Assembly: GCA_026026165.1 (NCBI GenBank)
Contig: JAPEUD010000063.1
Coordinates: forward strand, 124,001-147,802
DNA: 23,802 nucleotides
Source: Sarea resinae
Taxonomy: Eukaryota
Reading direction: 5' to 3'
Each line of letters begins with the position of its first letter. The first letter of the stretch is position 1. Positions 5,446 through 23,802 of this stretch are shown one piece after another. Both the position numbers and the translations under genes were made by a program. The notes under the pieces were generated by a model, which saw only the letters and a list, made by a program, of their open reading frames with translations, was not told where the DNA came from and searched no databases.

Positions 5446-5621
5446 AGAGGGAGAAACGCTTGTTTGGTGTGACGGCCGATAACAGTCACGGCGTCGATCG
5501 AGGCACTAAGGTGCTCACTTGGTGCGCCTCCCATGATGGTTGATGATTGATGATGATTGCTGCGGTGCGACCAGAGTAAACAACAACAATCATCTCTCGT
5601 ATGTCCGAACACGATCTTCTC

Positions 5622-5639
5622 ACTACTACTACTACTACT
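5622..5639. repeat. (ACT)6 microsatellite
   Basis: Read directly. Confidence 0.9.
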
Positions 5640-6495: not shown

Positions 6496-8535
6496 ATGTT
6501 TTCTACCGGCGGGCTGTTCAAGCAGGTCGCCTGTCCCGAAGGACCAAAATGCTCCCTCCCCAATTGCATCTTCTCGCACCAAGTCTACAAAGAGGAGAGG
6601 AAGGCTGGCTCCGGCCCGCTCGCAGGACGGTCAGATCTCCCTGGGAGCCTGACTGGCGATGAGAGTGGGCCACGGAAGAAGAGGCGGATTGACCAAGGCT
6701 CCGAACCAAAAGATAGCAATACGTCTCTCCGGGATGGATCGCCGAAGATTGATCTTAACGCTCCCTCGAAGCCTCGACGCCTTCTAGAAGAGGTCGAGGA
6801 ACCGGCCATCAAGAAGAAGCCCAAACTGGACAATGCGCTATCAAAGTTGCAATCCGCACGCAGAGCGGTTTCCCCGCCGGACTTGCGAGCCTCATCAGTC
6901 AGCGAGAAGAAAGGCTCGGAACGAATTGTAGAAGCCCTAGAAGCCCCTCGGTCGAGTAGCACGTCCAGACAACCCGTCAAAGCTGCTACTCTGGCGACGA
7001 AACACCGACAGGAAACCTTGAATCCTCGGCTCCTAACCAAACCACCTGCTTCTCATGCCTTTCGGTTGACGGTTGTTCAGAAGATACACGAACAGCTCAA
7101 ACGCCTCAATGATGGACTCCGCCAGGAAGCTGACTCCCAGGCATTGGTCTTGTCGGATCAAGAGCTAATCATTACTGTTCTGGATGAAGAGGAACAGGCA
7201 GCCCGTGAAAATCCATCAGTCTACTCGAGCGTGATGCGGCTGCGCATGGTCGCCCTCAAGAAGATGAAGCTGGATGAATGGAAGAAGCAACGACTCGAGA
7301 AGGTTGCAAAATCTTCTCCGGCTAAGGAGTCCGAGACCCCGCAATCTCCTATCGAGACGGGCCTGACGGGAGAAGAAGAGCTGGCTCTACTCCCTCGATT
7401 GGTCGCACGGCAAGACGGGCTCGAAAAGTTCGGCTATGTGCTCACTCCACCAGGTGAAGCAGAGATAGCCGCGGCCCTGACAGGAGTGGAGGCCGCCCAC
7501 GGCTGGGAGCAGTGTGACCGGTGCAAGTCACGTTTCCAGGTCTTTCCTGGCCGCCGAAAAGAAGACGGCGCTCTCACGACGGGTGGGAAATGCACGTACC
7601 ATCACGGTCGGGCTCTTCGACCTCCAAAAAGTCGCGCAGACGAGATGAAAGCGGGCCCTTCGGACCCTATCTATACCTGCTGCAGTCAGCCCCTCGGAGC
7701 TTCTGCCGGATGTACTACGGCTGAGAGCCACGTCTTCAAGGTCTCGGAACCGAAGCGTCTGGCGTCGATATTGCAGTTTGAACCCACGCCGTCAAACCCC
7801 AATATTCCCGAAAGCAAAGCCCTCTGCCTCGACTGCGAGATGGGCTATACGGTCTATGGGCTGGAGCTGATCCGCTTGACCGCTACGGCATGGCCAAGTG
7901 GAGACGAGGTCCTCGATGTTCTCGTCCGGCCCATGGGAGAAATTCTCGACCTGAACTCGCGCTTTTCTGGCGTCTGGCCTTCGCACATTACAGAAGCCGT
8001 GCCATATTCCGATGCTGTTCCATTGAAACAATCACAGCCGACATTGCCCTCACCGTCCGTCTCGGACCCTGGCGAAATACCTTCCTCGGCCGACCCCAAA
8101 CCGCTGCCTATCGTCTCCTCCCCGGCCTTTGCACGCAGTCTCCTCTTTGCCCACCTCACCCCGCAAACGCCGCTGATCGGCCACGCCCTTGAAAACGACC
8201 TGATCGCTGCCCGTATCTGTCACCCGACCATCATAGATACCGTGCTTCTCTTCCCGCATCCGCGTGGACTGCCCTTGCGGTACGGTCTCAAGGCCCTGAT
8301 GGCCAAGTACGCAAAACGTGATATTCAGATGGCAGGGGCGAGCGGCCACGATAGCAAAGAGGATGCTCGTGCAGCGGGCGACTTGGTCAGGTGGAAGGTC
8401 AGGGAGATTTGGAAGGGACTGAAGGCGGACGGCTGGAGCGTGAGAGATGGCGTTTTCTATCCGCCGCGATCGAGAGCTGAGATGGAAGCCGAGAGGGCGA
8501 AGAGGACGAAGAGGAAGGCGAGCGTGAGTGAGTGA
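6496..8535 (+). CDS. REX3: DEDDh 3'-5' RNA exonuclease, REX3-like (679 aa, intronless)
   Basis: First ATG at 6496 (MFSTGGLFK) followed by C-x4-C-x4-C-x3-H. Central CDRC...CTYHHG...CC...GC-x5-HVFK Zn region; exonuclease motifs LDCEM, IGHALEND, IIDT and GHDSKEDA. Confidence 0.92.
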   Translation: MFSTGGLFKQVACPEGPKCSLPNCIFSHQVYKEERKAGSGPLAGRSDLPGSLTGDESGPRKKRRIDQGSEPKDSNTSLRDGSPKIDLNAPSKPRRLLEEVEEPAIKKKPKLDNALSKLQSARRAVSPPDLRASSVSEKKGSERIVEALEAPRSSSTSRQPVKAATLATKHRQETLNPRLLTKPPASHAFRLTVVQKIHEQLKRLNDGLRQEADSQALVLSDQELIITVLDEEEQAARENPSVYSSVMRLRMVALKKMKLDEWKKQRLEKVAKSSPAKESETPQSPIETGLTGEEELALLPRLVARQDGLEKFGYVLTPPGEAEIAAALTGVEAAHGWEQCDRCKSRFQVFPGRRKEDGALTTGGKCTYHHGRALRPPKSRADEMKAGPSDPIYTCCSQPLGASAGCTTAESHVFKVSEPKRLASILQFEPTPSNPNIPESKALCLDCEMGYTVYGLELIRLTATAWPSGDEVLDVLVRPMGEILDLNSRFSGVWPSHITEAVPYSDAVPLKQSQPTLPSPSVSDPGEIPSSADPKPLPIVSSPAFARSLLFAHLTPQTPLIGHALENDLIAARICHPTIIDTVLLFPHPRGLPLRYGLKALMAKYAKRDIQMAGASGHDSKEDARAAGDLVRWKVREIWKGLKADGWSVRDGVFYPPRSRAEMEAERAKRTKRKASVSE

Positions 8536-8550
8536 GTGAGCGAGTGAGTG
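8524..8550. repeat. Imperfect (GTGA)n tetranucleotide repeat spanning the REX3 stop codon
   Basis: gtgagtgagtgagtgagcgagtgagtg read directly. Confidence 0.85.
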
Positions 8551-8870
8551 GAGGAGGGAGCGAGTAACGACGAGAGTGGCGAGCAAGAAAAGAAATTTCT
8601 CTATATCTTCAGCGATGGGTCGGTCGGTCGGTCAAATCGCCGGATTGATGAGAGCGTCGAATAAAAAAGGCTCGACGTCCATAGCACTTGAGTGAGCACT
8701 TTCAATTGGAATACGAGACTTGCTTTCCAAGGGATCAATTCGCTCCGACCCGACGTCCAGACGTCCAAACTAGATACATACAAAATGACCAAAAAAAGAA
8801 AATAAAATTTCTATGCAAGCACATGGTATACCGGAAAGCTCCCCCCTTTTCTCCAAAAATACAAACAATT

Positions 8871-10564
8871 TTACCGCCCGGAGTACTTCTTTTCAATGGT
8901 CCTCGCGACGGGATACACCAGCATCGTGATGGCGGCGCTCATGTAGATACCCACGTCGCCACCGTACGCGCCGAATTTCTTCGCAATTGGCCCGATATAC
9001 CAAGTCTGCGCCATGCCGGTGACGCCGCCGGCCAGGTATCCGGCCAACAGGGCCAGCACGGCGGCGATGCCGAGCGGTAATCTACTCGGCTGATCCCAGA
9101 CGTGCAGGTTGTAGCCGGAGCGGCGGCGGAAGAAGTGGTCCTCGATCAGCATGATCAGCGTGAAGGAGACGGTCCAGTAGCCCAGCAGCGAGACGAAGTT
9201 GCTGACGATGGTGCTCAGGTGCTGGCGACCGGCGATGGCGATGACGGTGACGACGATGCTGAACAGCGCGGACCAGATCAGGCGCGGCACGGCGTGGAAC
9301 CAGTGGCCCAGCAGCTGCAGCGACAGGCCCGAGCTGTAGTTGACCGCCACGTTGTTGCCCAGCACCGAGAAGGTCAGGATCACTAGGCTGAACTTGGACC
9401 AGCCGCGCGGGTGGTAGACCGTGTACATGAGCCCACCGAGGCCGTGCTTCGTGTAGGCCTCGGCGTAGGGCGGGTAGGCGGCTGAGACGGCCGCGTTGCC
9501 GAGACAGGCCCCAATGACCACGCTCCAGGTGACCGGGATCACGACGCCGAAGAAGGTCAGTGTGAATACTTTCCAGCGGGGCGTCGTAGATGGGAAGTTG
9601 ACGTAGTAGTCGGCCGCCATGGAGCACCAGCCCGACGCATTGGCTGTGATTGGAATTTAGTTCAACGGTCAGACCAGAGAGAGAAGAAGAGGACTTACAG
9701 AAGTTGATGGCCAGAATCGACAGGAAGTTCCCCGCGAAGATCAATCCCGAGCTTCCATCCTCGCCGGGAACGCTGGCATCGACGTGAGGCGCGGCTTGAG
9801 CGATGAGCACACACATCAGAATGAAGGTGCCGATCCACGAGTATTTCTCGAAGCTATGGATGACCTTGAAGCCGAAGACGGAGATGACATAGGACACGAT
9901 GGCGATGATGACGATGCCGACGATCAGGCTCATGGAGTAGTCCGACACGGCGCGCAGGATCTGGCCCACCACCACCAGGTTGACGACGTAGTAGCCGCCT
10001 CCCACGACGATGTTCAGCACGGAGCAGAGCTTGGCGCCATAGAAGCCGAACGAGTATCGAGAACAGGCGATTTGACGCAGCCCAAGCTAGCAAGATATGT
10101 CAGTCTTCGACAAGATCTCACAGCAGCAACAAGGGTGGATTTCATACCTTGGGACCCAGCGTACCCGTGTAGGCGGTGCAGAGAGATCCGAGAATGATGC
10201 CACAGATGCTCGCGGCAATGTTCTGGCGCAGCGAGAGGCCGAATTCGGCACCCAGCAGCCCGAGCGGCACGACGCCGACGTGCACGTTCAGCGACCACCA
10301 GATCAGGAAGATGTTCCACATCGACGGCGGCTCTCGCTTCTCGTCGGGGATGCGGTCGATGCCGTTGGTCTCGACGCCCAGCTTCTCGTCGAGCCATTCC
10401 TCGCCCGCCCGCATCTTTCGCAGGAAGCCGTGTCCGCCCTGGATCTCGCGCGCGCGTCGGATCTCGTCGGCGGTGCCCTCGGCGATGGCATCCTGCTCGG
10501 GCTCGGACGAGACCTGGAAGGTCTTCTCGTCGACGCCCTTTTCTTCCCTGTCGATCGAGGCCAT
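8871..10564 (-). CDS. NCS1-family purine-cytosine/vitamin B6 permease (Fcy2/Tpn1-like, 525 aa); exons 10564-10148, 10086-9699, 9643-8871
   Basis: Motifs VETNGIDRIP, GPK|LGLRQIACSRYSFG, GWCSMAADYYV, NNVAVNYSSGLSLQ and GMAQTWYIGPIA, plus many hydrophobic helices. Donors GTATGA and GTAAGT; exon lengths 417+388+773 = 1578 nt, in frame. Confidence 0.92.
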
Positions 10565-12027
10565 GATGTCGCCCTCGAGGTCTTCTGTTTCGGTGATCGT
10601 CGTACGTGGCTCGGACAAAGACGACACTGTAGAGATGGAGACGGAAGGCTTCACTTTTTATGGTGGTAGCCAAGGCAGGCACACGAGCACTATAAAGCCC
10701 ATACGCGCATCCCTCCCACAGATTGATCTACCCCATGTCGCCCACCTCTCCCACCTTTCTCTCTTCGCCCGCGCGGCGGATTCCTATCTCCTCCGTCGTC
10801 ATGCTACGATGGCCTCCCAGTGGACCGGACGAGCACCCAAGAGATGACCAACGACAACCAACGAGCAGGCCGCCTGGGGGCGAGAGATAAGGGCGGCCTT
10901 GCCCTTCTTCTAGAACTTCTAGAATGGCTGATGGCGTCGCCGCTAAGCCACATCTACCGTCCTCCAGCGTCCTCACCTTCCTCTTCGCGCAGCAAATCCG
11001 GCCGTAGTGCCATAGCCGAGTCGCCATCCCCTGCCTCTGGTGCTACCGGGTTCCGACCCACGCCTAATCCGCCACCACCCACCGAGAAGGCAAGAAGGTG
11101 GACGAGAAGGGAAGAAGACGAGTCAGGAGAAGAGAGCACAAGACGATCCATCAGCTCCCGCAGACCAGATTCCCCGACACCCTTTTCGCTCTCGAACTTC
11201 GCTCCAGCTGGGGCTAGGCATGGGTCTGAGGGTCTGCCACACATTGATACTTGTAATCTATCAGTAGAGTACTCCACACTCGAGACCTTCCAGATCAGCT
11301 CGAGATAAGCTCCCGCCGTACTATTGCGGCAGCGATGCCATGGTATTTCGCATCAAATCCTTCTAGAAGAAATGAATTGATGCATGCTTTTGCTTTGCCT
11401 TGCCGTGCCACAAATCTGCTTGCCATGTGACGTTTCCTTTCAGAAGCAGTAGCAGCAGCAGCAGTGGCTGCTGGCTTCGGGCGGCTCCGCTGCTGCCGTG
11501 TGCTCGGCCGTCGTCGACATTCATGATTACGCATGATCGGTGACACCCGTCAACTCGAACAGAGGGCGTTGAATCTCCCATGCTTCTCTCTATCCAGTAT
11601 ATTCAGATCCAGATCCATCGAGAGACGACTGTTCTGCCCACGCTTTGTACCCGTCGTGGGCGAGCCACGCGAGACAGACTCATTCACGGGTATTGGTACA
11701 TGCACAATCGGAGATCTACAGTCGAACGGACTCGTAGCCAAGAACATTCTTTTTGCATGGATGCCAGTCAGCACTCAGCACTCGAGATGAACAATGAAGA
11801 TGAAACCCACGAGAAAGTATCTACGTACTTCAGTAGACAACGACGACGAGATGCTACGTCATAAATCTCACAACTGAAACCCCTCCCACGGCTGTCAGCA
11901 TCAGATAGACAGTTTCGCTTCATATTGAAGGTATACAATCAGCGACGAGTGAATACAGATTCCTTACAGCAGAGTTGAAGACTACCATACTGACGAGAGC
12001 ATTTCTACTGCATAGCTTTGAGAGATC

Positions 12028-12858
12028 ATGCCATCCTCCACATCATCAGATGCACCCTTCAAAGTCTACGCCGCAGACCACAGCGCCGCCGTCCTCCGCA
12101 ACCACAACCGCCGCACCGTCCTTAGTTCTGCTCCGCACCTGCTGCCTCACTTGAAGCCTACACAGCGAATTCTCGACGTGGGCTGCGGTCCGGGATCAAT
12201 CACGATCGACCTCGCACGCCGCCTTCCCGACGGGCATGTCACTGGGCTGGAATACGTAGCCGATCCACTGGCTCAGGCGCGGGAGCGGGCTGCCTCAGAA
12301 GGATTGTCCAACATCGACTTCGTCGTCGGCGACATCCACTCGCTCGACTACGCTGACGAATCCTTTGACGTCGTGCACGCCCATCAAGTCCTCCAACACG
12401 TCGCCGACCCGGTGCTCGCGTTGCGTGAGATGCGACGCGTTTTGAAGTCGGGCTCGGGGATGGTTTCCGACCGGGAATCTGCCGACTGGACATGGTACCC
12501 GCCGTCGGCGGGCTTGACCGCTTGGAGTGATCTGCTGCGAAAGGTGACCGATAGCAGAGGCGGACATTTGCATCCTGGCAGCTGGATACAAGCATGGGCG
12601 GCCGAGGCCGGTTTCAGCCGCGAGAAGATTGAATGTTCGGCTGGCACGGAGCTGTATAGTACGCCTGCGGAGAGGAAATTCTATAGCGAGATGATGGCGG
12701 AAAGGGTTGTGGGAACGGCGTTTTCAAGGAATGCTATTGAGGGTGGCTTTGCGACGCAAGAGGAGTTGGAAGGCATGGCAAAAGCGTGGAAAGAGTGGGC
12801 CGAGAACAAAGACGGATGGTTTGCTGTCTGGCATGGAGCGGTCATCTGTCATGTCTAA
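12028..12858 (+). CDS. Class I SAM-dependent methyltransferase (UbiE/COQ5-like, 276 aa, intronless)
   Basis: Motif I ILDVGCGPGSIT, followed by SFDVVHAHQVLQH and ALREMRRVLK. Confidence 0.92.
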   Translation: MPSSTSSDAPFKVYAADHSAAVLRNHNRRTVLSSAPHLLPHLKPTQRILDVGCGPGSITIDLARRLPDGHVTGLEYVADPLAQARERAASEGLSNIDFVVGDIHSLDYADESFDVVHAHQVLQHVADPVLALREMRRVLKSGSGMVSDRESADWTWYPPSAGLTAWSDLLRKVTDSRGGHLHPGSWIQAWAAEAGFSREKIECSAGTELYSTPAERKFYSEMMAERVVGTAFSRNAIEGGFATQEELEGMAKAWKEWAENKDGWFAVWHGAVICHV

Positions 12859-12944
12859 ACGGCTTGGCATCATTTAGTTATCGTTACAATCATTCGAGAA
12901 AGTAAGTACATATGGTTTCGTTTCTTTAATTAGTTCTAGCAAAA

Positions 12945-13245
12945 GGATACACCTCTCGAGTTAAAGAAAATACCAGCAAGTAGGTCCAGTCTCATTTCTC
13001 TTGTCGTGGATTATACCGGCATACATCCGGAACTTGTGTGCTTGAAACCCGCAGTCGTCCTTCAAACTCTCCCGCAAGGTCCTCACAATCAAATTTAGTC
13101 AGAAATATGCCTCTTGAAGTAGAGAAAACACCAGCAGCAGACCCAGTCTCATTCCTCCTGTCGAGGAACATACCGGCACACATCTGGTGCCCGTGTGCTT
13201 GAAACCCACAGTCGTCCTTGAACCTCTCTCGCAAAGCCCACAGAT
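12945..13245. repeat. Diverged tandem duplication (period ~157 bp) of the last ~28 codons, stop codon and proximal 3' UTR of the 13149-14438 gene
   Basis: ccagtctcatt occurs at 12986 and 13143, and gtgtgcttgaaaccc..cagtcgtcctt in both units. Translations are FAREVQGRLWVSSTRAPDVCRYVPRQEE* versus LAGEFEGRLRVSSTQVPDVCRYNPRQEK*. Confidence 0.93.
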
Positions 13246-14438
13246 ATCATTTCCGGACTCTGAAACACCACTTGCGTGGCCCGACCACCGCTCCTCAGAC
13301 GTAAGGGCTCGAGCTGGGATTGGTCTGACATGCGACTGACTCTACTCGTGGCTTGCCCACATATATCTCCAACGAGAACGGGCGCCTGCTCGTACGTCCT
13401 CAGACTTGGGGGGAGCCTGCCGGCGTTCGCTGTATAGGCGTGTCGATTTCTGCTGTGCCAGATGATATCGCGCCAGTCGGGATGGTAGACGGAGCGTTGC
13501 CCCTCCATTATCTCACGCGGCACGGCCACGTACATGATGCCAGCTTCTTCGGGCGGGATTCGGAGGGCGACGTAAGACGCATACTTCTGCGCCACTTCAA
13601 TGTGTTTCGTGAAATAAAGGAGCGGATATGCGGGATGGAAGTCTGTCGGGGGTCGAGAAAGAATCGGTTCCAAATTCAGCGTACCATCTGGTCTGAAGAC
13701 AGACAGGAAACGTTCGTAGGAGCCGCCCTTGTACAGTATCATGCATCCGTCAACTTGCGAAGGGGGTATTGCCTCAGTGAGAAGGGAGTATATGGGGCGC
13801 GGGCCATGGATGGCTTGGGTCAACGTGGGACGCAACGTGGGACGCAACGCGGCGGACGGTTGGATGTTTGGATCTGGAGAGGCCACCCTAGCGCTTTCTT
13901 GCTTCTTTTGTATGATTCTCCCGTCAAGGTCTTCCAAGAACTCCCAACACAAATCAATGGTGTCCAATGCCCAGTACGAGGCGGTGCCAGTAAGTCGCAG
14001 CTCTCGGTAATCTGGATGCAAAATTCTGGCCCGTGTGTTTTCTGATATCCCTTGCGCCTGCAGAACACCATCCCAGCTGTGAATAGGGTCAGGAAGCCAC
14101 GCTTCCGTCGTGCGGGACACGGTCTTCACATAGTGTCTAGCTAGTGTGATCAGGTCCTCGGGTTCGAACTGCGTTTCTTCATCGTAATTCTCTTCATTTT
14201 CAACCCATTTGTTGAATATCTGGTCGGCCACGGTCGCATCAAACCCGCAGAAGACAAGGGCCGATGCACTCATGAGATGTTCGGGTACTTGTACTGTCTC
14301 GGTGCTGGAGCCCGAACCGAATGAAGCCCTCGACACGGCTCGAAATCCCGAGTTTACCTCGCCAGCTTCCCCCGCGGCGAGCAAGAGCTGGAGACTGCCT
14401 TCCGAGATGACCCTTTGCGTTACATACGAGCCAGACAT
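13149..14438 (-). CDS. Hypothetical protein (429 aa) with a C-terminal DUF3990-like/ADP-ribosyltransferase-fold candidate domain
   Basis: Long intronless ORF with first ATG at 14438 (MSGSYVTQ). Ordered motifs ILYKGGS, TDF..LYFT..A.KYA, W..IIW.SR, VLVGDI and TQVVFQS. The domain call comes from pattern recall only. Confidence 0.8.
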   Translation of the reverse strand: MSGSYVTQRVISEGSLQLLLAAGEAGEVNSGFRAVSRASFGSGSSTETVQVPEHLMSASALVFCGFDATVADQIFNKWVENEENYDEETQFEPEDLITLARHYVKTVSRTTEAWLPDPIHSWDGVLQAQGISENTRARILHPDYRELRLTGTASYWALDTIDLCWEFLEDLDGRIIQKKQESARVASPDPNIQPSAALRPTLRPTLTQAIHGPRPIYSLLTEAIPPSQVDGCMILYKGGSYERFLSVFRPDGTLNLEPILSRPPTDFHPAYPLLYFTKHIEVAQKYASYVALRIPPEEAGIMYVAVPREIMEGQRSVYHPDWRDIIWHSRNRHAYTANAGRLPPSLRTYEQAPVLVGDICGQATSRVSRMSDQSQLEPLRLRSGGRATQVVFQSPEMISVGFAREVQGRLWVSSTRAPDVCRYVPRQEE

Positions 14439-14889
14439 CTTTGAAGTTGGCAGTGAGGTGTGTTGACGATATGTGTGATGCGGTATGATAAAGTGAGAGG
14501 ATAAGAGTCTGTGCAATACACGAGACTATTACTGAGGAAATAGAGAAGAGGAAGAATAAAGCGTCGAGAGAGTGAAGTGAATCGAATCAAGTAGGAAACT
14601 ATTGTTGAGAGTGAATCCTGCGTGACTCACAAAAACAAAGCAAGACATACTAAGCCCGGTGAGATGATGGGAGGTAGTTGAGAATAAAATTATTTAGGTT
14701 TCCGGATTGCACCTGGTTGGGGTCGAGGTGAACCTGCGAACCCCGACGTTACCCTTATCTATACAGGTAGAACGTCACGATGAAGATAGATGTGATTTAT
14801 AGCCGACTGGTCAAAATCCTCCTAAACAATCATCCTTTGGATCAGACGTATTGTACAATGCGCCGACTTTCAGATAGCTCTATCTCATG

Positions 14890-15885
14890 CTAAGTCTTAT
14901 TGGGTCTTGTGAACATCCGACCAAGAACGCCTGGTCGATCGAGCCTCTCCAGACCTTCCCGAACTTGAGCAAAAGGAACCTCCTCGACAACCGGTAAGAG
15001 AGAGCGATTCGCGATCAGTTCTATCACAGCGGCCAATTCCTTGAGGCCAGAGCCTATCGAACCCCGAAGCTCGATGTTGCGCGCCACAAGAGCCGTCACA
15101 GACAGCTTGAACTCTGCATTCCCAAGCCCGACCAACACGACCCGTCCGCCGGCCTTTACCGCCGCGATTGCATCCGATGTGGTTGTCCCGATGCCCGCAA
15201 AATCAGCGATAACGTCAATCGGCACGTCCGGGAGGGAGCTGAGGCTGGAAAAGCACTCGACGGCGCCGTTCTGCTTTGCTCCTTCGAACTTGACAGTGTC
15301 GATGTCGACCCCGTATACAGTGGCCCCATGTAATGCCGCGATCTTGACGCCGTTTGAACCCAAGCCGCCTAGCCCGATGACGACGACCGTCATGCCGGCA
15401 GTTATCTGGCCTTCGACCATGATCGCATGATATGCCGTGGCAATGGAATCGGTCGCGACGGCCGCCTGTTCGAAGCTGACATTATCGGGAAGCTGGACGA
15501 GATGGGTCACCGGCGCAAGGGCATATTGGGCGTATCCGCCGTCGTAACCTAGACCGATCGATTGAGACCAATCTACCTCGCTGATCGGATGGACGATTTG
15601 TGCCACGGCCACTCGGTCGCCCAATCGAGCTTGAGTGACGCCCGGTCCGAGGGCGATGACGGTCCCGGCCACCTCATGGCCCAGAACAATTGGAGGCTGT
15701 TTGTGGATGAAGCCATCGCCACGGCCTGCGGCAATGAGCGTATCTGAATGGCACAGTCCCGCGGCTTCGATCGCTAGAAGAACCTGACCGGGCCCTGCTT
15801 GTGGGATTGGGATCTCCTTCAACACCAGGCCCTCCGGTTTCTCATACGTAAATGCTTTCATCGTGCAATTTGTTTCAATTGTCAT
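14890..15885 (-). CDS. Zn-dependent medium-chain alcohol dehydrogenase lacking the structural-zinc Cys cluster (alternative start 15861)
   Basis: GLCHSD, LGHEVAG, GDRV, GYDGGYAQY, ATDSIAT and Rossmann GLGGLG motifs. No CxxCxxC...C lobe after GDRV. Confidence 0.93.
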   Translation of the reverse strand: MTIETNCTMKAFTYEKPEGLVLKEIPIPQAGPGQVLLAIEAAGLCHSDTLIAAGRGDGFIHKQPPIVLGHEVAGTVIALGPGVTQARLGDRVAVAQIVHPISEVDWSQSIGLGYDGGYAQYALAPVTHLVQLPDNVSFEQAAVATDSIATAYHAIMVEGQITAGMTVVVIGLGGLGSNGVKIAALHGATVYGVDIDTVKFEGAKQNGAVECFSSLSSLPDVPIDVIADFAGIGTTTSDAIAAVKAGGRVVLVGLGNAEFKLSVTALVARNIELRGSIGSGLKELAAVIELIANRSLLPVVEEVPFAQVREGLERLDRPGVLGRMFTRPNKT

Positions 15886-16413
15886 GTATGATAGAACTTT
15901 ACGATTACAGCGGACATGCGGGTTTTTATGCTGGAATTCTCTCCCGTGTCTGCTTCATTCCCCTCCTCGGATAAGCATGCCACTTTCCAGGTGACCCAAA
16001 CCGTGGATAAGCGAACCACTTTCACAGCCAGATCGGACGATTGCGAAATAAACATCGGCACTTTCCACCCTGTCGCTTCTCACCTACTACCTGGAAGAGG
16101 CGTAGTCGAATTCATCGGCCAGGGTCTTGATCAGATATCCACTAGCGTTGTGAGATCTTTGTTTAAAGAAGTTGGTCCGTCGGGGTTGGACGATAGAAGT
16201 AAGAGCGCGATCAACGATATGCATCGCTAAGGCAGCGAAAGCAAAGTAGGCGAAGCTGCAAAATGCGGGGAAGAGGTGGCGATTAGTACGTACGAATGAT
16301 GAGAAAAACAACTTTTGCTATCATACACCAGGGTATATTTACTGGAAGATCTCATTCAAAAAGATTCAAAAAATAAGAGACTTCGCTGTAGACTATAATC
16401 TTCATCGCCGACA

Positions 16414-17208
16414 ATGGCTCTTTCGTCTGCCGAGCTACTCCACCATGTCGCCCTCAATGAATCCCAGCCCGAAACCATCGTCCTACTCCACGGCCTCATG
16501 GGCTGCACGCTGGAATGGGCGCACGTCGAACCCCATCTCTCAGACTACCACCTTCTCATCCCCGATATGCCTTCCCATTCCGGATCCCGTCACCAGGGGC
16601 CTTTCACTCTCGTGCACGCCGCAAACAAAGTGGCCGACCTCATCCGCGCGCGCGCGCACAATTCCACGTCACACGTTGTCGGATTCAGCGCCGGCGGATA
16701 CGTCGCGTGTACTCTCGCTAAGATGCACCCAGAGCTTGTGAGCTGCCTCTTTGTCTCGGGTGTCTACAACATGGCCACCAGGTGGGGTTGGATGCCAGTT
16801 GCGCCACTCGAACTCTTCATGCCAGCTTCGACGGTAGACTACGGGCAAAGAAGGATGGGCTGGAAGAGTCCGGAAGGGTATCAAAAGGAGGCGGCGGCCA
16901 ATTACAGCCCTAAGATGGCTCAAGAAGCCTGGAAGAGTTTCGCGTCTTTCGGAGACGGCGAGCCCTTGAGTATGAGGGCACTAGCTGTGTCAGGAAGGAA
17001 ACAGGATGATACAGAGGCAGTTGGGAGATTAAGTGAGGTCCTTAGGAAAGGAAATCCCGAGAGTCGTGCTGTAGTGGTTCCCGGCGCGATGCATCCCTGG
17101 TTGTTGCAGTTTCCGGAGCTATTTGCACAGGGTATCAAGGCATGGGTTCAAGGCGGAGAGCTACCAACTGACTTCGAAATAATCAAGAGTAAAGAAGCTA
17201 AAAATTAA
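16414..17208 (+). CDS. Alpha/beta-fold hydrolase (264 aa, intronless)
   Basis: LLHG oxyanion motif, PDMPSHSGS, nucleophile elbow GFSAGG, candidate acid QDD and catalytic His in GAMHPW. Confidence 0.9.
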   Translation: MALSSAELLHHVALNESQPETIVLLHGLMGCTLEWAHVEPHLSDYHLLIPDMPSHSGSRHQGPFTLVHAANKVADLIRARAHNSTSHVVGFSAGGYVACTLAKMHPELVSCLFVSGVYNMATRWGWMPVAPLELFMPASTVDYGQRRMGWKSPEGYQKEAAANYSPKMAQEAWKSFASFGDGEPLSMRALAVSGRKQDDTEAVGRLSEVLRKGNPESRAVVVPGAMHPWLLQFPELFAQGIKAWVQGGELPTDFEIIKSKEAKN

Positions 17209-18525
17209 GAAAAGAGATTTGATGTGTGAAAAGATAGCGAGGCATCTCTTAGATCTGTTGTACATATACTAACCTTCATCTTTACTTTGTAACTCTATCT
17301 ACTTCATTTACTTTCCTTATACTCTTCTATACACGCCTTACACAATTACACAAGAAGAGGGACACCGGAAAATTAAGTCGACTAGAGAAGAGGAATTATC
17401 TCATAGACACGAAACGCTTCTGCTCGCCTCTGTGTAGAAAGTAGCGACAGGTCTGATCCAATCGGTCAACAGGAGACGTACTTCCTTTCGTCGCCTACCT
17501 TCTTCTATCTGTAGAAGATATGAAAATGCCCAGGCTAACAACCCAGAGCACGCCACCCTCATGCTGAACGCACACAGTGAAAGACGTCGGGAGATTCTTA
17601 GCCGACGCTATCAAAATTTACAGACGATACTTAGCAAGGCCGGAAGAAGAGGCAATTTGGAAAGGCACACGCAGGCATGAAGCGAGAAGACAAATGACTG
17701 AAAATACTGATAATCGCTGTCGAGAAGAATCGAAAGGGAGACAAGAGCGCGAAATTGAGGCTTCAGCGCCTGAACTACTCTGCTTTCACTGGACCGGCTC
17801 GGGACTTCTGTAGGTGAGTATCCAATAGACGAGGGATAGAGCCTAGAGCTGCCTGGTACTTTCTCGCCCTTTCGCATGTCACTGCCATGCTATCAATAAT
17901 TCTCCAACCACCCGGATCAGATTATATGGCCTCGATCTGTGAAATGGACTCTCAGAATAAGCCCGAGCGATTCTGCTTCGAATTGAACGTTGAGGATATT
18001 CCCGGGGAACCAACTCGACGTCCATTGACCCTTGCCAATGACTTTATGAACCGTTTCCATGCTCGAGACTTCACATTCGAACGCGACTACATGTTTGCAC
18101 ACCTAACCGCATTGCAGCGGCCGAAGACACCGTCTTCTCGTCGATTTTCGCCGATCTTCGCCTCTTTAAGGCATCGAAGCGAGCCCCAAGCGAGAATCGA
18201 CGGTGTTTTCGCGACGGTGTTTTCGCGCCTGTCAAAAAGCGCCCTCTGCCCACCGACCTGACCACCTCGATAGCTGCCTCGATCCTCGCCCGCGCACCCG
18301 CCCTCTGTTCGTTCGATCGCTGGCCCGCCAGCGTCGATTTCCCACCCTTAGGGTTGCCCTGTCCCTTGGGGTTACTTGGGGTTCGAGGTATATCAAGAGG
18401 TGATTGCAGCCAGCTAAGGCAGACTAACAGCGCACTTCGCCCCTGGCGCCTGCGCAGCGCTCTAAGGAAAGGAGAAGGCTTGCTTGCGTCTGATCTACTA
18501 GCCGCCGTTTAAAGATTTTAAAAAA

Positions 18526-18544
18526 CTTCTAGACAGTCTAGAAG
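18526..18544. repeat. 19-bp palindrome CTTCTAGAC-A-GTCTAGAAG, copy 1 (upstream of the ORF)
   Basis: Perfect 9-bp arms around one central base, flanked by A-tracts. Confidence 0.95.
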
Positions 18545-18625
18545 AAAAAGCTCTCTATATATATGTACACTGCGCCTGCCTAGCCTGCTAGCTATTTAGC
18601 CAGCCTAGCTAGCGAAATCTACTAG
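18536..18625 (+). repeat. Left copy of a degenerate direct repeat also found at 23439-23515 and 23655-23689
   Basis: 18591-18625 matches 23655-23689 at 29/35, with 5 of 6 differences being transitions. The order gtctagaag-A tract-ctctct-tgtRcRctgcgc-gcctg-agctattt is shared with 23439-23515. Confidence 0.8.
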
Positions 18626-18769
18626 GAGAGTTTAAGCGTCACTTAGGGTTGAAGGAGGAGGATCAAGGTGGTTATTACAGTGAGCCAAGGCATGCTAACT
18701 GCGCACTTTGCCTGCAGCAGCGCTGCTGCCGCCCTTAATAACTGGTAGCAGCAGCTGCAGCAGGCGGCG

Positions 18770-18880
18770 CAAGAACAAGAGCAACAAGAGCAGCAAGAGG
18801 AGCAAGAGGAGCAAGAGAAGCAAGAGGAGCAGCAAGAGAGATTAGGATCTAGATTAAGATTAAGATCAGGATCGCGATCG
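18770..18880 (+). repeat. Coding minisatellites: ~9-bp CAAGAGSAG units (Q/E-rich) followed by ~6-bp RGATYA units (probably an ancestral GS linker)
   Basis: Read directly; in frame with the DUF3505 region. Confidence 0.8.
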
Positions 18881-20601
18881 TTATTATTCCACTATAAGCC
18901 AAACTATCAGGTCCTAATCTGCTGTCAACATAGCTACGCCCTTTGAAATATAGACCGCTACTTAAAGGACAGTCATACAATGCTGGCTAAGGAGCGACGT
19001 CTGCTTAGAGCGCAGTATTAAGGCTGCAGCCTACTTGATCTGTATGCTATGCCTTTGCTACCGCTAAATTGCCCTGCATTTCCTGCTCTAAAGGCACCTA
19101 CTAACAGCTTTACCTGTTGAGACTATAGTTTTAGCACAGCGAATCGCTAGATCATGCAGAAGCACAGCAATAAGCAGCACGCCTAGTCTGCTGATTAAGA
19201 GGAGGAAGAAGAAGAAGAGGACTCGCTGAATTAGCAGCTAGTTCTAGTGCAGACCTTCTTTACTAGCAGGCTGCAGCGATATTTTCTAGTGCGGCTGGCG
19301 GAAAAGAAGCACGCAGAGAGGAGCTACAATAATGATTAGCTAGGCGAAGCAGCCTCTAACAACCTAGCTAGTTAGATCTAGCGCGAGTTCGATGCTTAGC
19401 AGGCCGCGCACAAGCAGAGTCAGGCCCTGACTAAGAGCGAGGTGCAGAAGACTAATCGCACTAGCTGGTTCAGTCGCACTAGCTGGCTAGCCCACCTGCG
19501 CCGCCAGAATATAGCTCACCTTCTCTACACTAGCGAGCTCTCTAACTAGCGACTTAGGCGGCCGCGGCGGCAGCGGCAGCGGCAGGATTTAGACTAGATC
19601 CTTAGCTAGGCTGCTAAGGTCACCTGACTAATAATTGAGCGCTGCGTGGCTAGGCTAGCTACCTTACTGCTTAAGCTCTGCCGCTGGCTGCGCAGCGAGA
19701 AGCGCACTAAGGTGCACCTAAAGCTATTAGGTCAGCTGCAGACCGCGGAGGCTTAGGTGCGCTATGCTAACTATTAGGCGCGTCTGATCTGCTATTGCCT
19801 GCGTGTCTTTGCCTACTGCACCTTTGCCGCCTACGCACCTAACGCGCGGCTGAAGGATGCCGACGAATTGCTGCATCTAATAGCAGAGCAGAACGAGCGC
19901 TTGCAGGCTGTCTAGGAGTCGCTCGAGCTTGATAGCGATAAGGCCCTGCAGGTCGACTAAGTGCTAGCCTTCTCGCAGGCGCTTATCTTTGACCTACTAC
20001 TAGTAGACCCCTTTGACAGCGCGCTAGTCCACTTCCTTGCTGTGCTTAGCATCGACCCCCTCACTAAGCGGCTGCACACAGCGACAAGCTACTTCTACTA
20101 GCTAGCTAGGGTGGTCTACTACATGCAGGTGATTAGGGTCGAGGTGCTGCTGCTAGCGGCCGCGTAGGAGCGGCAGGGCTAGGCTAAGCAGAAGCGCTTC
20201 CTAGGGCAGCGCAAGATATTCCTAGCCGACAGCTTGCTAACCCTGATAAGCACGATAATCAGCCTGCTTGCATACGCTAAGTACATCGGCTGGCAGCAGC
20301 TAAGCATAGCGACGACAAACTAGGCCTAGGATGCTCAGTCGCTGCGCTTCTGCAGCAAGCTAATTGTGATTGCCTACTTCTAGCAGATAGCGCACTAGGC
20401 GATCGAGGCCGCTAAGGCCATCCTCTAGCCTAAGCTGATGTAGTGCTGCGAACTAGGCGACTGCTTCACTGTCAACCTAGCTGGCATTAAGGACGACATA
20501 GCGTTCACACAGCAGAATTAGTCCTTCCTTAGCAATCTAGCAAACCAGCTAGATCAGGGGCTCTCCTTAATAGTGGCGCGCGTCGCCTGCACAGCTTGAT
20601 A

Positions 20602-20620
20602 CTTCTAGACAGTCTAGAAG
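20602..20620. repeat. 19-bp palindrome, copy 2 (inside the coding frame)
   Basis: acttctagacagtctagaagaaa is identical to copy 1 over 23 bp. Confidence 0.95.
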
Positions 20621-23403
20621 AAAGAAAGGAGAGAAGACAAAAAACCGCTCTAACAGCGCGACAGCACTGGCTAAGAACCAGGCCTAGTTAGGGACTACTG
20701 CTAGCGTGTGCAGGCCTTTCTTAAGCTGCTACTCTTCAGCTGCTATGTGACTAGGGGCTAGCCTAGCCGCGGCACTAAGGAGTTGTCAGTGCGCTATCGC
20801 AACAGCCTGCTACAGGATTGCAATGTCTACGTAGTAGATAGATTAGTTGTGCTAGTGACCCGCTACTATAAGAGCTAGGCCTAGTACAATACCCTAAAGG
20901 TAGTGCTGCGCTTCCTGCTGTAGCGAGTCAGCCAGCTTATAGTCGTCTACCTAGCCTACGTGCGGCCGTTCTACAGCCACCTGCAGACCGCGGTCAGCTT
21001 AGGGGGCGGGCTTGACAATGAATTTATCTAGGGCACAGCCGAAGGGCAGCTGTGGCTAACAGAGCGGCTGACCTAGGTCCTTAGCCGCGAGACATCCACG
21101 CGGTTAAAATGTCGGCTGACCACGCAGGACTATTAACATGTAGCGATCACAATCGGCTAGAAATTCGTGGGCAAGGAATTCGCTGCTAGCAAGGGGCGAG
21201 CGCTGCATTGTAGGGACAAGGCTAAGGATGTAGAGGAGCCGCAGCTTGAGCAGGAGGACAAACTCGAGCTGCAGACCAGGCACACTACTGCTATCAGGCA
21301 AATTCGATATAGCGTTTCTAGGGATATCGTCTAGAATCTCAGCGCGCGCTCTCTTAACGCGTTTAGCTAAGTGAGTCAGGCGTGGCACGCATTCCTACAG
21401 CTTGATAGTGGCAGCAGCCTAGCTAGTGCAGCGCAGCAGAGCGAGTCCTAGCCTAAGCTTAAGGGAAAGCTAAAGCGCAAGCAGGAAGCAGAGGAGGAGC
21501 AGCCGCTAGAGGAGGAGTAAGAGGAGAGAGAAGAAACAAGAGTTCTAGTGATAGGCTGTGGCTGCTGCAAGCGGTTTCGGCTGCTAGAGGATGATAATAG
21601 TTCGAGGCAAGAGATCAACGTCGACTTAGAGGAGGTTGTTACTAGCATGCAGCAATTGCTAGGGTTAAGTCAAGTAGAGTTTAAGTCGGCAGAGCAGCGC
21701 GTGGCATTGCAAGCGATCTTACAACATAAGACGCTGACTGTAGTAGTGCTGCCTACTAGAGGCAGGAAGAGCCTGCTGTTTATGCTGCTAGCTTAGCTCG
21801 AGCAACAGCGGCAGGAGAAAGGGCTGCAAGGGCCGCTAGTGACAGTAGTAGTAGTGCTGTTCTGCGCCCTAGTGAACGATCTAGTCAGCCGATTGCAGCG
21901 GGTCGGCATTAACAGTCTTAAGTAGAGGCACAGCGATAGCAGCTTCGCTGCAGTAGTAGTAGTCAGCGCTAATCTCGCTAGTGGGTCGGGTTTCTTAACA
22001 TACACCACAGCGCTGCAGCGGCACAGTCTGCTGCAGCGGATCGTCGTGGACGAGTGTCACCTGACGTTCACAGCTAACTATTACTGGCCGCGGCTCAACA
22101 ATCTCAAGCATCTGCAGACAATAATGTGCCTGATAATACTACTGACCGCGACATTGCCGCCTGCTCTAGAGCGAGAGCTAGCTGACAGCATGCTGATGCC
22201 AGTGGCGCGCTGCATTCGCGCTCGCACGATCTGGCCGCGCACCCGCTATCTAGTAGTGCGGTGCGAAGATAGCTAGCTGCTTGAGAGCGCAGCGCACCTC
22301 TATTGACAGCAGCTGCAGCAGCGACTGCAGCGGCAAGGGAAAGGGGTGATCTACTGCCAAACCTAGGCGGCGTGCAAGGCCTTGGCTGAGACTCTACAGT
22401 GCAGCCACTATCACTTGACATTAGAGGAGAAAGAGCGCCAGCTTAGGCAGTGGATGTCTAAAGAGGGCTGGATTGTCGCTACTAGCGCGCTTAGCACTAG
22501 GGTCGACTACAGCAGGATCTTAATGACGCTGCACATCAGGGTGCTGTATAGCATGATCGACTTCGCGCAGGAGTTAGGCCAGGCCAGGCGCGCTAGCAAG
22601 GACGTAGATGCTGTTATGCTTGTAGAGGCCGGCCAGCTCACAGCGGCGGCCGTCGTAGAGCGTACTGTTGACCAGCAGGCGATGTAGGAATTTATCACCA
22701 CTTAGGGCTGCCAGCAGCAGATTATGAGCGGCTACCTTGACAGAAAGGGGGTGCAGTGTAGCGAGGTCGACTAAGGCACAGCGGCGCAGTGCGATCGATG
22801 CGGCAAGGGCCTAACTGAGTGGCAGACCTGCGAGGCCAAAGCAGAGCGGCAGCAGGCCGTCGTCAAGCAGGCACTCGACTAGCTTAAAGGGCGGTGCGCT
22901 GTCTGCTAGGTGGCCGAGGGGCTCAAGGAAGGGGCTAGGCAGGCAGAGCGGTAGGAGCATAGCTAGCACCGATGCCTGCAGCAGGGTGCGCTTAGCAAGC
23001 AGGCTGTCAATAGCTTCTGACAGAAAATCCAGTTCTAAGAGGACTCAGAGGAGAAGACCCACAGCTGCTTTCGATGCGGCATCAGTTAGCGGTATTGCCG
23101 CACTAGAGTTGACACTCAGGCCAGCTGTTAGTAGCTGAATCAACTGGTGCCGATCGTGCGCACCGCTGCAGCTGACGCGGCAGCTAGCGCGAGAGGGTGG
23201 GAGCTGATTAGCAGGGCCGGATTTCTCGGCTAGCGAGGCGACCTCGAAGGATACAGCAAGTGGCTCAGGCAACAGCACATCTGGCCGGTGTAGGGAGAGT
23301 GGGTCAGCAACGCTATAGTGGTGATAATCGAAGTGATCCTGCACCTTTAGCAAGAGCTTGAGCGAGCCTAGACGTCGCTTGATGTCGCTGTTCGACGATT
23401 AAA

Positions 23404-23447
23404 CTTCTAGGCAGTCTAGAAGAAAAGATTGCTGGATTGTCTAGAAG
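23404..23447. repeat. 19-bp palindrome, copy 3 (23404-23422, one A/G mismatch) plus a degenerate fourth copy (23429-23447, 14/19)
   Basis: aaacttctaggcagtctagaagaaaag and ttgctggattgtctagaag read directly. Confidence 0.9.
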
Positions 23448-23802
23448 GAAAAAAACTCTCTGTGCGCTGCGCGCTCGCTCTGCCTGTCAGCTATTTGGCT
23501 GGCCAGGCCAGCCTAAACTAAGTAGCCTTGCAGCAGTAGGGTTGCCACTAGTTAGACGCGATAAAACATTGCCTCTAGTGCTCCTAGCCTTACCTCTGAC
23601 CCTCTATGCTGCGCTGGCGCTGCTCGCCTGCACTGCAGGCCGCGTTGCATCTTAGCTATTTAGCTGGCCTAGCCGGCGAAAACCACTAGCGCAAGTCAAA
23701 TATATAGGTGATTCCTCTATACACCTATATATATATAGACGCCTACTAAGAAAAGCGGTCTATTAAAATAGATTATTATTCTTTCATAGTGTAAGATTTG
23801 TA

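Follow-up and report, generated by a model that had tools for sequence, protein, structure and literature searches.

Is the RIP-damaged helicase gene in this stretch of Sarea resinae DNA part of an autonomous mobile element of a new class, or a copy of a family already described from fungal chromosome ends? A sequence-only reading of the window, by which we mean the whole stretch of 23,802 nucleotides analysed here from contig JAPEUD010000063.1, had proposed at 18,398-23,713 a unit that joins a tyrosine recombinase (YR) to a RecQ helicase and spreads by its own excision and integration, possibly through a circle. We find that the locus is a RIP-killed copy of the known TLH, or TLH-containing-region, family.

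Identity of the locus

The unit holds one plus-strand gene of 4.5 kb, in a single frame with 67 in-frame stops and no frameshift. Translated with X at the stops (P0001, frame 2, +), it aligns by BLASTP in one segment, residues 163 to about 1630 against residues 7 to about 1424 of an intact homologue of 1449 aa (P0002), with 585 of 1535 positions identical; this end-to-end alignment bears out the earlier view of a single-gene unit. The pseudogene lies at 18,884-23,350 (+), with a possible original ATG at 18,692. It has 163 homologues (best E 4e-168), and with those of 1450-1600 aa the gene aligns end to end in a single frame. One homologue, a Fusarium oxysporum protein of 1587 aa (P0071), matches the length reported for Fusarium TLH ORFs, given as 4692-4889 bp in the available text of the preprint (bioRxiv 10.1101/2024.02.27.582403). 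At 50% identity and E ≤ 1e-3 the family counts 4949 representatives.

The N-terminal C2H2/OrsD zinc-finger region (Pfam PF12013) occupies 18,884-19,180 (+). Its match in the damaged copy (P0001 163-261; E 8.2e-5, 23.5 bits) falls under the cut-off of 26.6 because of RIP, and three intact relatives score above it (E 1.7e-20 to 4e-23). Residues 760-1005 of P0001 align to a conserved block of the 163 homologues just upstream of the helicase, which is the TLH domain. The RecQ-type SF2 helicase core follows at 21,620-22,717 (+), where remnants of motif I and of the DECH and LTAT stretches can still be recognised; Helicase_C matches the damaged copy at E 0.006, and the family profile searched against PDB finds RECQL5 at E 1.8e-69, as well as BLM, RECQ1 and E. 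coli RecQ, so that the helicase call of the sequence-only reading was right. A Cys-rich C-terminal region at 22,706-23,137 (+), placed by alignment to P0002, has nearly invariant Cys columns among the homologues. In intact relatives the order is C2H2/OrsD zinc fingers, a domain modelled as a two-domain tyrosine-recombinase fold, RecQ helicase and Cys-rich tail.

The order C2H2, TLH domain, RecQ agrees with the published description, in which, so far as the accessible parts of the papers go, two C2H2 motifs precede a TLH domain of about 250 aa and then RecQ motifs (10.1101/2024.02.27.582403; 10.1101/2022.03.07.483234). The same domain order is given there for Magnaporthe oryzae TLH1, Fusarium oxysporum TLHcr and Botrytis cinerea BcTLH; S. 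pombe tlh1/2 and Ustilago are named alongside the fungal TLH genes in the available text. Like the present locus, the published regions are described as units of at least 5-6 kb with flanking repeats that carry telomere-like motifs, and the published ones are multicopy. The present copy differs in being RIP-dead and in lacking a terminal telomere array in the window. The claim of a new transposon class thus gives way to membership in a family already on record, as far as these sources describe it (PMC1635262; bioRxiv 10.1101/2024.02.27.582403; 10.1101/2022.03.07.483234).

RIP damage and the left junction

The element is marked by directional G:C to A:T damage of the RIP type. Of 542 columns that are conserved among 24 homologues, 191 are changed in the window; C>T/G>A alone explains 116 of these against 6 for the reverse change, the others being explained by C>A/G>T (8), by C>G/G>C (19) or by none of these changes (42). 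Of the in-frame stops of the coding part, 51 are TAG, 10 TAA and 6 TGA. TpA/ApT is raised to 1.3-2.6 in the element, compared with 0.3-1.0 across the 18 kb upstream, so both the RIP signature and the undamaged state of the neighbouring upstream genes stand as originally read. The signature is also an indirect sign that the genome has more than one copy of the unit. RIP is usually marked by a classical substrate index (CpA+TpG)/(ApC+GpT) below about 1.03. In the element this index is not depleted (1.18-1.62) and CpG observed/expected is 0.64-0.83; partial RIP acting on a gene rich in CAG/CTG could account for the undepleted index, as could a broader sequence context.

Where does the damaged DNA begin and end? 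Counts of TA and CTAG jump at about 18,400, a sharp onset. A telomere-like G-strand tract at 18,343-18,390 (+), with one TTAGGG and two TTGGGG, lies between non-RIPed unique DNA and the element; the RIP signature starts exactly at this tract, and the TA and CTAG counts rise directly after it. The tract at the left edge had been overlooked in the sequence-only reading. That reading noted no telomere array, and none is found within the window, where telomere-like motifs mark the proximal edge of the element and RIPed DNA runs on to the last base. Tract and gene point the same way, so the telomere is expected past the window's right-hand edge. The proposed right end at 23,713 did not hold, since RIP-like AT-rich sequence continues to the last base of the window and the distal boundary is not reached.

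These junctions bear on a first alternative, namely that the unit is an autonomous transposon, freely mobile and of a new class, which is excised as a circle via terminal sites and integrates at new sites, internal ones included. Its copy here directly adjoins ordinary genes (ADH, hydrolase, methyltransferase), as such an element might, and many homologues sit on contigs of 5-6 kb, as repeats do in assemblies. Against it, the left junction is telomere-like, for which addition at a chromosome end is no worse an explanation than integration of a circle; the right end falls outside the window; and the orientation of the gene relative to the G-strand motifs puts this copy at its contig's distal end. 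The available text of the published TLH accounts, moreover, reports no interstitial copy (PMC1635262; 10.1101/2024.02.27.582403; 10.1101/2022.03.07.483234).

Flanking repeats and palindromes

Direct repeats of about 260 bp flank the gene on both sides, as had been claimed. The left one, at 18,480-18,759 (+), consists of a P palindrome, a Y box and the X2 box and was matched by transition-tolerant local alignment to the right one at 23,388-23,649 (+), which holds the palindrome P3 (23,404-23,422), a degenerate P' (23,426-23,451), a Y box (23,463-23,524) and X3. The alignment score is 135; 100 shuffles give a median of 69, a 95th percentile of 89.5 and a maximum of 95. The smaller boxes are repeated too: the X1 box at 18,371-18,441 (+) has its second copy, X2, at 18,638-18,712 (blastn 73% over 75 nt, E 1e-6), both starting with ACTT[A/G]GGGTT, and a further Y box at 23,652-23,689 (+) is followed by AT-rich RIP-like sequence to 23,802.

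The three palindromes likewise hold up. The 19-bp palindrome (9-nt arms, 1-nt centre) occurs exactly three times, with none expected from 100 shuffles: P1 at 18,526-18,544, about 340 nt upstream of the start of homology; P2 at 20,602-20,620, within the gene and in frame, as part of a 15-codon insertion in the linker preceding the catalytic half; and P3 in the right flanking repeat. Beyond the palindrome itself, the surroundings of P2 do not resemble the flanks significantly (scores of 80.5 and 88, where the null reaches at most 84 and 94, respectively). The supposed 8-bp boundary repeat fared worse. There are three copies of the 8-mer AGGTGATT (18,398, 20,127 and 23,706) against 0.69 expected, a count that 3 of 100 shuffles reach, and the copy at 18,398 sits within the X1 box, for which reason it looks like part of a flanking repeat and unlike a target-site duplication; alignment of X4 is too weak to place the copy at 23,706.

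Among relatives, one (L002) carries a perfect 25-nt palindrome both 100 nt before its ATG and 18 nt after its stop, another (L008) is flanked by a direct repeat of 290 nt, whose left and right copies both begin GGGTTAGGGT, and a third (L003) has TTAGGGTTAGGG 95 nt past its stop. In a scan for arms of at least 10 with at most 1 mismatch, flanking palindromes were found in only one of seven TLH-like relatives (L001, L002, L003, L005, L007, L008, L009). The same palindrome on either side of the gene, here and in L002, would suit a free transposon, as would a modelled recombinase fold with a conserved candidate catalytic set fused to a helicase; the non-significant 8-bp end repeat counts against it, and with the evidence of the junctions we regard a free transposon as highly improbable.

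Predicted fold of the TLH domain

The sequence-only reading had called a tyrosine recombinase, and this call holds at the level of the predicted fold: the TLH domain, at 19,850-21,412 (+) with its catalytic half at about 20,675-21,412, is modelled as a two-domain tyrosine-recombinase fold with candidate catalytic residues. Two AlphaFold models of the TLH domain of homologues were used, the first of 496 aa (pLDDT 86.9) and the second (pLDDT 83.9) made from another first row, a 347-aa fragment from Aureobasidium. For the first model the best 14 of 50 structural matches are all tyrosine recombinases or topoisomerase IB, with Xer at Z 11.5 (rmsd 3.3 over 167 residues) and the first unrelated match at Z 7.1; for the second the best 28 of 50 are tyrosine recombinases, topoisomerase IB, Ndc10 or MrpR (Z 10.2-4.4, Xer at 10.2), and those after rank 28 have Z ≤ 4.1, with unrelated chains at 3.7 or below. 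In Foldseek, ranks 1-2 and 4-5 of one model, and every match listed to rank 36 of the second, are Cre, Xer or lambda Int; no E-value reaches 1e-3, the best being 0.067 and 0.045. Both the core-binding and the catalytic domains of Xer, Cre and phage integrase superpose on the model, the first model giving Z 10.4 over 232 residues with Cre and Z 10.7 over 235 with XerH.

Members of the tyrosine recombinase/topoisomerase IB superfamily carry the catalytic set Arg-Lys-His-Arg-His/Trp-Tyr and act through a covalent 3'-phosphotyrosine. The TLH domain has in common with Xer, Cre and phage integrase the order Arg...Lys...Arg...His...Tyr, and in 92 homologue rows (24-73% identity to the first row) the conserved columns are Arg (90), Glu (90), Lys (90), a second Arg (92), His (49) or Arg (42), and Tyr (91). 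In the damaged copy remnants of these residues lie at 20,768-20,770 (Arg), 20,870-20,872 (Lys), about 21,281 (His) and 21,308-21,310 (Tyr), and the second Arg, at 21,134-21,136, is now a TAA stop. The domain differs from Xer, Cre and phage integrase in an identity of only 10-15%, in an acidic, low-confidence insert that precedes the Tyr helix in the models, and in the first catalytic His of HxxR, three residues before the second Arg, which is not conserved in the 92 rows (L, A, Q, R or S in that column). Sequence profiles do not make the call: Pfam Phage_integrase (PF00589) matches none of 25 domain-only members even at E ≤ 10, the domain profile finds in PDB no recombinase and only proteasome alpha (E 0.14), and the precomputed Pfam matches of the 120 listed short relatives are only helicase (PF00270, PF00271, PF04851) or OrsD (PF12013).

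The available text of the TLH papers assigns the domain no function, whereas here it is given a predicted tyrosine-recombinase fold. A literature search for this link found no paper connecting TLH to a recombinase, so the recombinase insight is apparently new, the family itself being already known. Given the modelled recombinase shape and the key residues, the elements may move themselves.

Known elements of similar design

Crypton copies are dispersed, bounded by short direct repeats and, to our knowledge, encode no helicase, a tyrosine recombinase being their only enzyme. The present unit resembles them in that its only candidate breakage-joining enzyme is the predicted tyrosine-recombinase fold, in having no terminal inverted repeats and in having direct repeats at its ends; it differs in the fusion of that domain to a RecQ helicase. 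No link at the sequence level between the TLH domain and Crypton recombinases was obtained. Cryptons are described, in the text available, as tyrosine-recombinase DNA transposons without terminal inverted repeats and with direct repeats at their ends (PMC3627910). With Helitrons the unit shares that a eukaryotic element encodes a helicase, and repeats adjoining Botrytis TLH genes have been labelled 'Helitron-like'. The present helicase, however, is an SF2 RecQ, not the SF1 type that the sequence-only reading named for Helitrons, and neither the RIPed copy nor any of three intact relatives gives a Pfam match to an HUH/Rep nuclease domain. The Y' elements of Saccharomyces cerevisiae, 5-6-kb helicase-encoding subtelomeric units that, in the part of the source available, are not at all ends and may form tandem arrays (PMC1635262), are alike in size, helicase gene and probable subtelomeric position, a likeness by analogy only.

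Discussion

Does the putative recombinase act for the element, or are TLH regions carried passively at chromosome ends? On the passive account the regions spread solely by homologous or break-induced recombination from one end to another, the mechanism proposed for yeast Y'; the protein serves the host in telomere maintenance, and its recombinase-fold domain either has lost catalysis and only binds DNA or acts on telomere structures, not on element ends. In the published accounts, to the extent available, every TLH copy is telomere-proximal: 11 of 11 in M. oryzae 70-15 (PMC1635262), all 14 complete copies in Botrytis Vv3 (10.1101/2022.03.07.483234), and TLH on 79-92% of chromosome ends in four Fusarium strains (10.1101/2024.02.27.582403). 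Homologous or break-induced recombination can explain such positions without a recombinase, and a telomere-like proximal junction is expected after end healing and recombination. The missing first His, the occurrence of this fold in non-catalytic proteins such as Ndc10, which is among the matches of both models, and palindromes that are not common to relatives point the same way. Yet 90-92 of the 92 homologues retain both Arg and the putative nucleophile Tyr, which would be difficult to understand if the domain were purely structural. TLH regions are not required for telomere function according to the accessible part of one study (Rehmeyer 2006, PMC1635262), and presence or absence varies among strains of one species, Vv3 having its 14 copies and two other Botrytis strains none in the text available (10.1101/2022.03.07.483234). 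Nearly 5000 diverged clusters, likewise, suggest a selfish element sooner than a housekeeping factor. We hold the passive account to be unlikely.

The reading that we favour, as somewhat probable, is that intact copies are selfish units of chromosome ends. The element's own recombinase-helicase would cut and rejoin DNA at the flanking repeats or telomere-like tracts, and units, alone or as arrays, would thereby be copied or transferred from one chromosome end to another, without targeting arbitrary internal sites; RIP would have seen the present copy as repeated DNA and killed it. The published settings describe such surroundings, as far as the sources could be consulted: Fusarium TLH regions have telomere repeats on both sides and stand singly or in arrays (10.1101/2024.02.27.582403), and tandem repeats with telomere-like motifs flank the Magnaporthe gene, whose 3' end faces the telomere (PMC1635262). 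A bolder version, which we put forward tentatively and think rather doubtful, makes TLH regions a large, old superfamily of telomere-targeting DNA transposons with the 'TLH domain' (the TLH-specific motif of 2009) as transposase; the tyrosine recombinase, helped by the fused RecQ helicase, would join a telomere-like or palindromic site to chromosome-end repeats, leaving telomere repeats on the flanks of every unit and building arrays.

TLH genes at fungal chromosome ends have been catalogued since the late 1990s; in the available text of the 2024 Fusarium preprint (10.1101/2024.02.27.582403) and of the 2025 FoTeR paper they are still genes of unknown function, with the TLH domain treated as no more than a conserved block. 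A predicted recombinase fold with a conserved Tyr, the putative nucleophile, makes the question of TLH function testable at the bench. Should the enzyme be inactive, what we have here is an ordinary subtelomeric pseudogene damaged by RIP. If it is active, it would explain the flanking telomere repeats of every unit, the arrays and the sharp copy-number differences between strains, and the known kinds of eukaryotic mobile DNA would gain one whose design joins a recombinase to a helicase.

One gene of the TLH family, ruined by RIP

Neither strand of the final 5.4 kb of the window has an open reading frame of at least 150 aa (stop-to-stop frames). When frame 2 of the forward strand is translated from position 18,398, each stop being written as X, a string of 1772 residues with 88 stops is obtained, which aligns with P0002, an intact homologue of 1449 aa, as a single BLASTP segment (query 163 to ~1630, P0002 7 to ~1424; 585/1535 identities) and with no frameshift. 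Given that the segment is single and free of frameshifts, the region is therefore one long gene, ~18,884-23,350, ruined by point mutations only, and the single-gene unit proposed by the sequence-only reading is borne out.

The damage is directional. At 542 alignment columns with at least 80% agreement among 24 homologues, the window codons deviate 191 times; 116 of the deviating codons can be reached by C>T/G>A alone from a codon for the conserved residue and 6 by the reverse transitions, the remainder being C>A/G>T (8), C>G/G>C (19) or none of these classes (42). Of the 23 stops at conserved columns, 9 stand in place of Trp, 5 of Gln and 5 of Arg, and the last four each stand for a different residue. 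In accordance, TpA/ApT in 1-kb windows is 1.32-2.62 in the element, whose GC is near 0.5-0.58, as against 0.33-1.03 in the 18 kb upstream, and counts per 200-nt window step up at ~18,400 and remain raised to the last base of the window, to 8-26 for TA (3-12 before) and to at most 8 for CTAG (0-1 before). Thus the RIP signature read earlier from the sequence is real, as is the contrast with non-RIPed neighbouring genes. The ratio (CpA+TpG)/(ApC+GpT) is not depleted in the element (1.18-1.62) as the classical substrate index would have it, so RIP was either partial or of broader context.

Of 8000 candidates scored with query residues 760-1480, 163 proteins reach E<=1e-3; the top one has E 4e-168, 44% identity and 99% coverage. 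Most homologues are 1450-1600 aa long, with OrsD, DEAD and Helicase_C domains; among the genera named as sources are Aureobasidium, Hortaea, Cryomyces, Friedmanniomyces, Fusarium, Botrytis, Alternaria and Parastagonospora, and many of the genes lie on contigs of 5-6 kb. Against solved structures, a 40-member family profile finds RECQL5 (E 1.8e-69), then BLM, RECQ1 and E. coli RecQ. A published account of Fusarium telomere-linked helicase (TLH) genes gives ORFs of 4692-4889 bp (bioRxiv 10.1101/2024.02.27.582403), in agreement with the 1587-aa homologue from Fusarium oxysporum. Judged by homology and by the match to published TLH descriptions, the window gene is a TLH gene. The function of TLH is stated as unknown in two papers (bioRxiv 10.1101/2022.03.07.483234; 10.1101/2024.02.27.582403). 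A Helitron reading was rejected, as Pfam finds no HUH domain in the RIPed copy or in three intact relatives and the helicase is of SF2.

A predicted tyrosine-recombinase fold in the TLH domain

Between the zinc fingers and the helicase, no Pfam match is found in the RIPed copy or in the three intact relatives. This stretch holds the TLH domain, the conserved block upstream of the RecQ helicase, a term that reportedly goes back to Rehmeyer et al. 2009. The domain family numbers 4949 representatives (50% identity) at E<=1e-3, 3001 at E<=1e-10 and 731 at E<=1e-30, and its consensus runs in the order G-Q-P-x-R-G-x-E ... Y-H-K ... Y-R-H-x-A-I ... G-H-T ... Y.

Two structure models were built from different members of the family. 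The first, covering 496 residues of P0002 aligned with 91 homologues, reached pLDDT 86.9 and pTM 0.74, and its best 50 matches in an all-against-representatives structural search open with 14 chains, each a tyrosine recombinase or type IB topoisomerase. Among them are an archaeal Xer (Z 11.5, rmsd 3.3, 167 aligned), XerH (Z 10.7, 235 aligned) and Cre (Z 10.4, 232 aligned), and several cover both the core-binding and the catalytic domain; the top unrelated chain has Z 7.1, and Flp, Ndc10 and the protelomerase TelA rank lower. The second model, with P0167, a natural 347-aa fragment from Aureobasidium, as first row and 61 others, reached pLDDT 83.9 and pTM 0.83. Here the first 28 of the best 50 matches belong to the tyrosine recombinase/topoisomerase IB superfamily (Z 10.2-4.4) and later ones have Z of at most 4.1. 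Rank 29, just under the recombinase block at Z 4.1, is a chain of the human Zincore complex (SEPHS1:QRICH1); QRICH1 reportedly derives from a Crypton recombinase. With Foldseek, XerA, XerD, Tre and Cre take ranks 1-2 and 4-5 for the first model (best E 0.067), and the second model has Cre, XerH, XerA, XerD or lambda Int at every rank listed, down to 36 (best E 0.045); neither model has a match at E<=1e-3.

The candidate catalytic columns of the 92-row alignment hold Arg in 90 rows, Lys in 90, a second Arg in 92, His (49) or Arg (42), and Tyr in 91. The canonical catalytic set has a His three residues before the second Arg, and the corresponding column is variable here.

Sequence searches did not recover the relationship. 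Pfam recombinase models match none of 25 domain-only members even at E<=10; the domain profile against PDB sequences gives a sole, chance-level match to proteasome alpha (E 0.14); and a whole-protein profile search returns only helicases among the matches listed. ESM Atlas clusters annotated Phage_integrase and NDC10_II, at 0.85, are weak leads. In a search for shorter relatives the 234 matches were swamped by TLH fragments, with no stand-alone Crypton-like relative distinguishable, and the 150 matches listed from an exhaustive profile search (4949 matches) are likewise dominated by TLH fragments, with no visible tie to other recombinase families. A full-text literature search, its coverage lying outside most subscription journals, found no paper linking TLH to tyrosine recombinases or Cryptons.

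As far as the two predicted models reach, the assignment of the TLH domain to the tyrosine-recombinase fold is solid, and catalytic competence of the predicted domain is plausible but unproven. The YR half of the YR-RecQ element proposed earlier holds on fold but not on sequence profiles; Arg, Lys, Arg and Tyr are conserved, the first His is not.

Repeats and edges of the element

Direct repeats had been claimed on both sides of the ORF, together with three palindromes, and both are upheld. In a transition-tolerant alignment 18,480-18,759 matches 23,388-23,649 with a score of 135, against a median of 69 and a maximum of 95 in 100 shuffles. A near-perfect 19-nt palindrome (9-nt arms, 1 central base) lies at 18,526, 20,602 and 23,404; 0 are expected, and none occurred in 100 dinucleotide-preserving shuffles. 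Repeat search and alignment also place two kinds of small box in the flanks, X at 18,371 and 18,638 and Y at 18,568, 23,463 and 23,652. The internal palindrome (20,580-20,625) is in frame, inside a 15-codon insertion relative to P0002 that lies in the disordered linker just before the catalytic half of the recombinase domain. We reject the view that it repeats the whole flank module, the likeness beyond the palindrome being within the range of the shuffle null; it may have arisen as a footprint, by gene conversion or as an internal site.

A telomere-like G-strand tract of 48 nt on the forward strand (18,343-18,390; one TTAGGG, two TTGGGG), overlooked by the sequence-only reading, sits exactly where unique DNA meets RIPed DNA; a telomere array is, as claimed, lacking from the window. 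A perfect 14-nt tandem duplication (18,198-18,225) is seen in non-RIPed DNA ~120 nt before the tract. Farther upstream (1-18,300), Pfam identifies a zinc alcohol dehydrogenase, an alpha/beta hydrolase, a SAM methyltransferase and an esterase-like DUF676, and several long ORFs, including 6,454-8,535 and 13,149-14,516, have no Pfam match.

An 8-bp boundary repeat had been offered for an element of 18,398-23,713. As a target-site duplication we reject it, as the 8-mer occurs 3 times against 0.69 expected, once inside the gene, and its copy at 18,398 falls within the first X box (18,371-18,441). No non-RIPed DNA is seen right of the element within the window. A transposon that roams freely through the genome, as first imagined, would have on its side the recombinase fold fused to a helicase and the palindrome on both sides of the gene; with the boundary repeat gone and a telomere-like tract at the left edge, we hold it to be improbable.

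In Magnaporthe (PMC1635262), the TLH gene has tandem-repeat blocks on both sides, and the upstream block, which holds telomere-like motifs, marks off unique sequence; the gene points its 3' end towards the telomere across an AT-rich interval, and the region is stated to be dispensable for telomere function. The window matches this layout point by point: unique genes, telomere-like tract, flank repeats, rightward gene, flank repeats, AT-rich sequence. In Botrytis, 14 TLH copies are counted in strain Vv3 and none in two other strains (bioRxiv 10.1101/2022.03.07.483234). The main rival holds that such copies spread passively, via recombination between chromosome ends, and that the recombinase fold serves another role. 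The terminal layout would suit it and a conserved putative nucleophile Tyr would not, and we regard it as rather unlikely.

Loci of relatives

A metagenome scan returned 80 loci, 9 of which (L001-L009) were taken as TLH-like by a match beyond the helicase core or at least 30% identity. At the other 71 the helicase core alone matched, at 25-33% identity, many on contigs of at least 100 kb, and these we take for bacterial RecQ. No locus has nucleotide similarity to the flanks of the window.

Locus L002 encodes an intact TLH ORF of 1580 aa, bracketed by a perfect 25-nt palindrome, in sequence unlike that of the window, at 2,303-2,327 (100 nt before the ATG) and 7,186-7,210 (18 nt after the stop; arms up to 17 nt). 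It also has degenerate, RIP-like palindrome copies at 1,840, 7,324 and 7,355, a 12-nt tandem array at 7,244-7,303, a TTAGGG 46 nt upstream of the start codon and, downstream, a partial, RIP-like copy of the gene. Its upstream ORF was considered as a preceding tandem TLH copy and rejected for lack of similarity and of any Pfam match. A flank palindrome conserved across relatives was likewise rejected, since only L002 among the 7 loci scanned has palindromes on both flanks at the scan threshold. L008 has an intact ORF of 1551 aa between 290-nt direct repeats (76% identity), each copy beginning GGGTTAGGGT. Downstream of its TLH unit, at 8,300-10,100, blocks of G/A-rich tandem repeats reminiscent of the 'helicase-associated repeats' of Magnaporthe are seen, among them an 11-nt unit in 18 copies (9,607-9,888), a 12-nt unit and a duplication of 71 nt.

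At L003 an intact ORF of 1585 aa is preceded, at a distance of 190 nt, by a TTAGGG. A short stretch of interstitial telomere repeats (5,560-5,600; TTAGGG TTAGGG TTCGGG TTAGGC ... TTAGGG), TTAGGGTTAGGG, follows 95 nt past its stop codon, with further TTAGGG-like motifs at the contig end (~7,048-7,080). Summed over the nine loci, TTAGGG occurs 33 times on the gene strand against 2 for CCCTAA, a bias that may partly reflect G-rich composition.

Discussion

Beyond what is shown of the window element, namely the TLH membership, the RIP damage, the repeats and the predicted recombinase fold, a mechanism can be outlined. A protein that joins a recombinase fold with a nucleophile Tyr to a RecQ motor would most likely cut and rejoin DNA, and its nearest sites would be the flank repeats of the element, the palindromes or the telomere-like tracts. 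The coding unit would be discrete, repeat-bounded, strain-variable and multicopy, always with telomere repeats on both sides. That the predicted recombinase is itself the transposase, with telomere repeats as its target, is a bolder proposal within a wider interpretation, conceivable but doubtful. We lean, with some reserve, towards that wider interpretation, in which the TLH region, with a real recombinase-fold domain, would act as a selfish unit restricted to chromosome ends.
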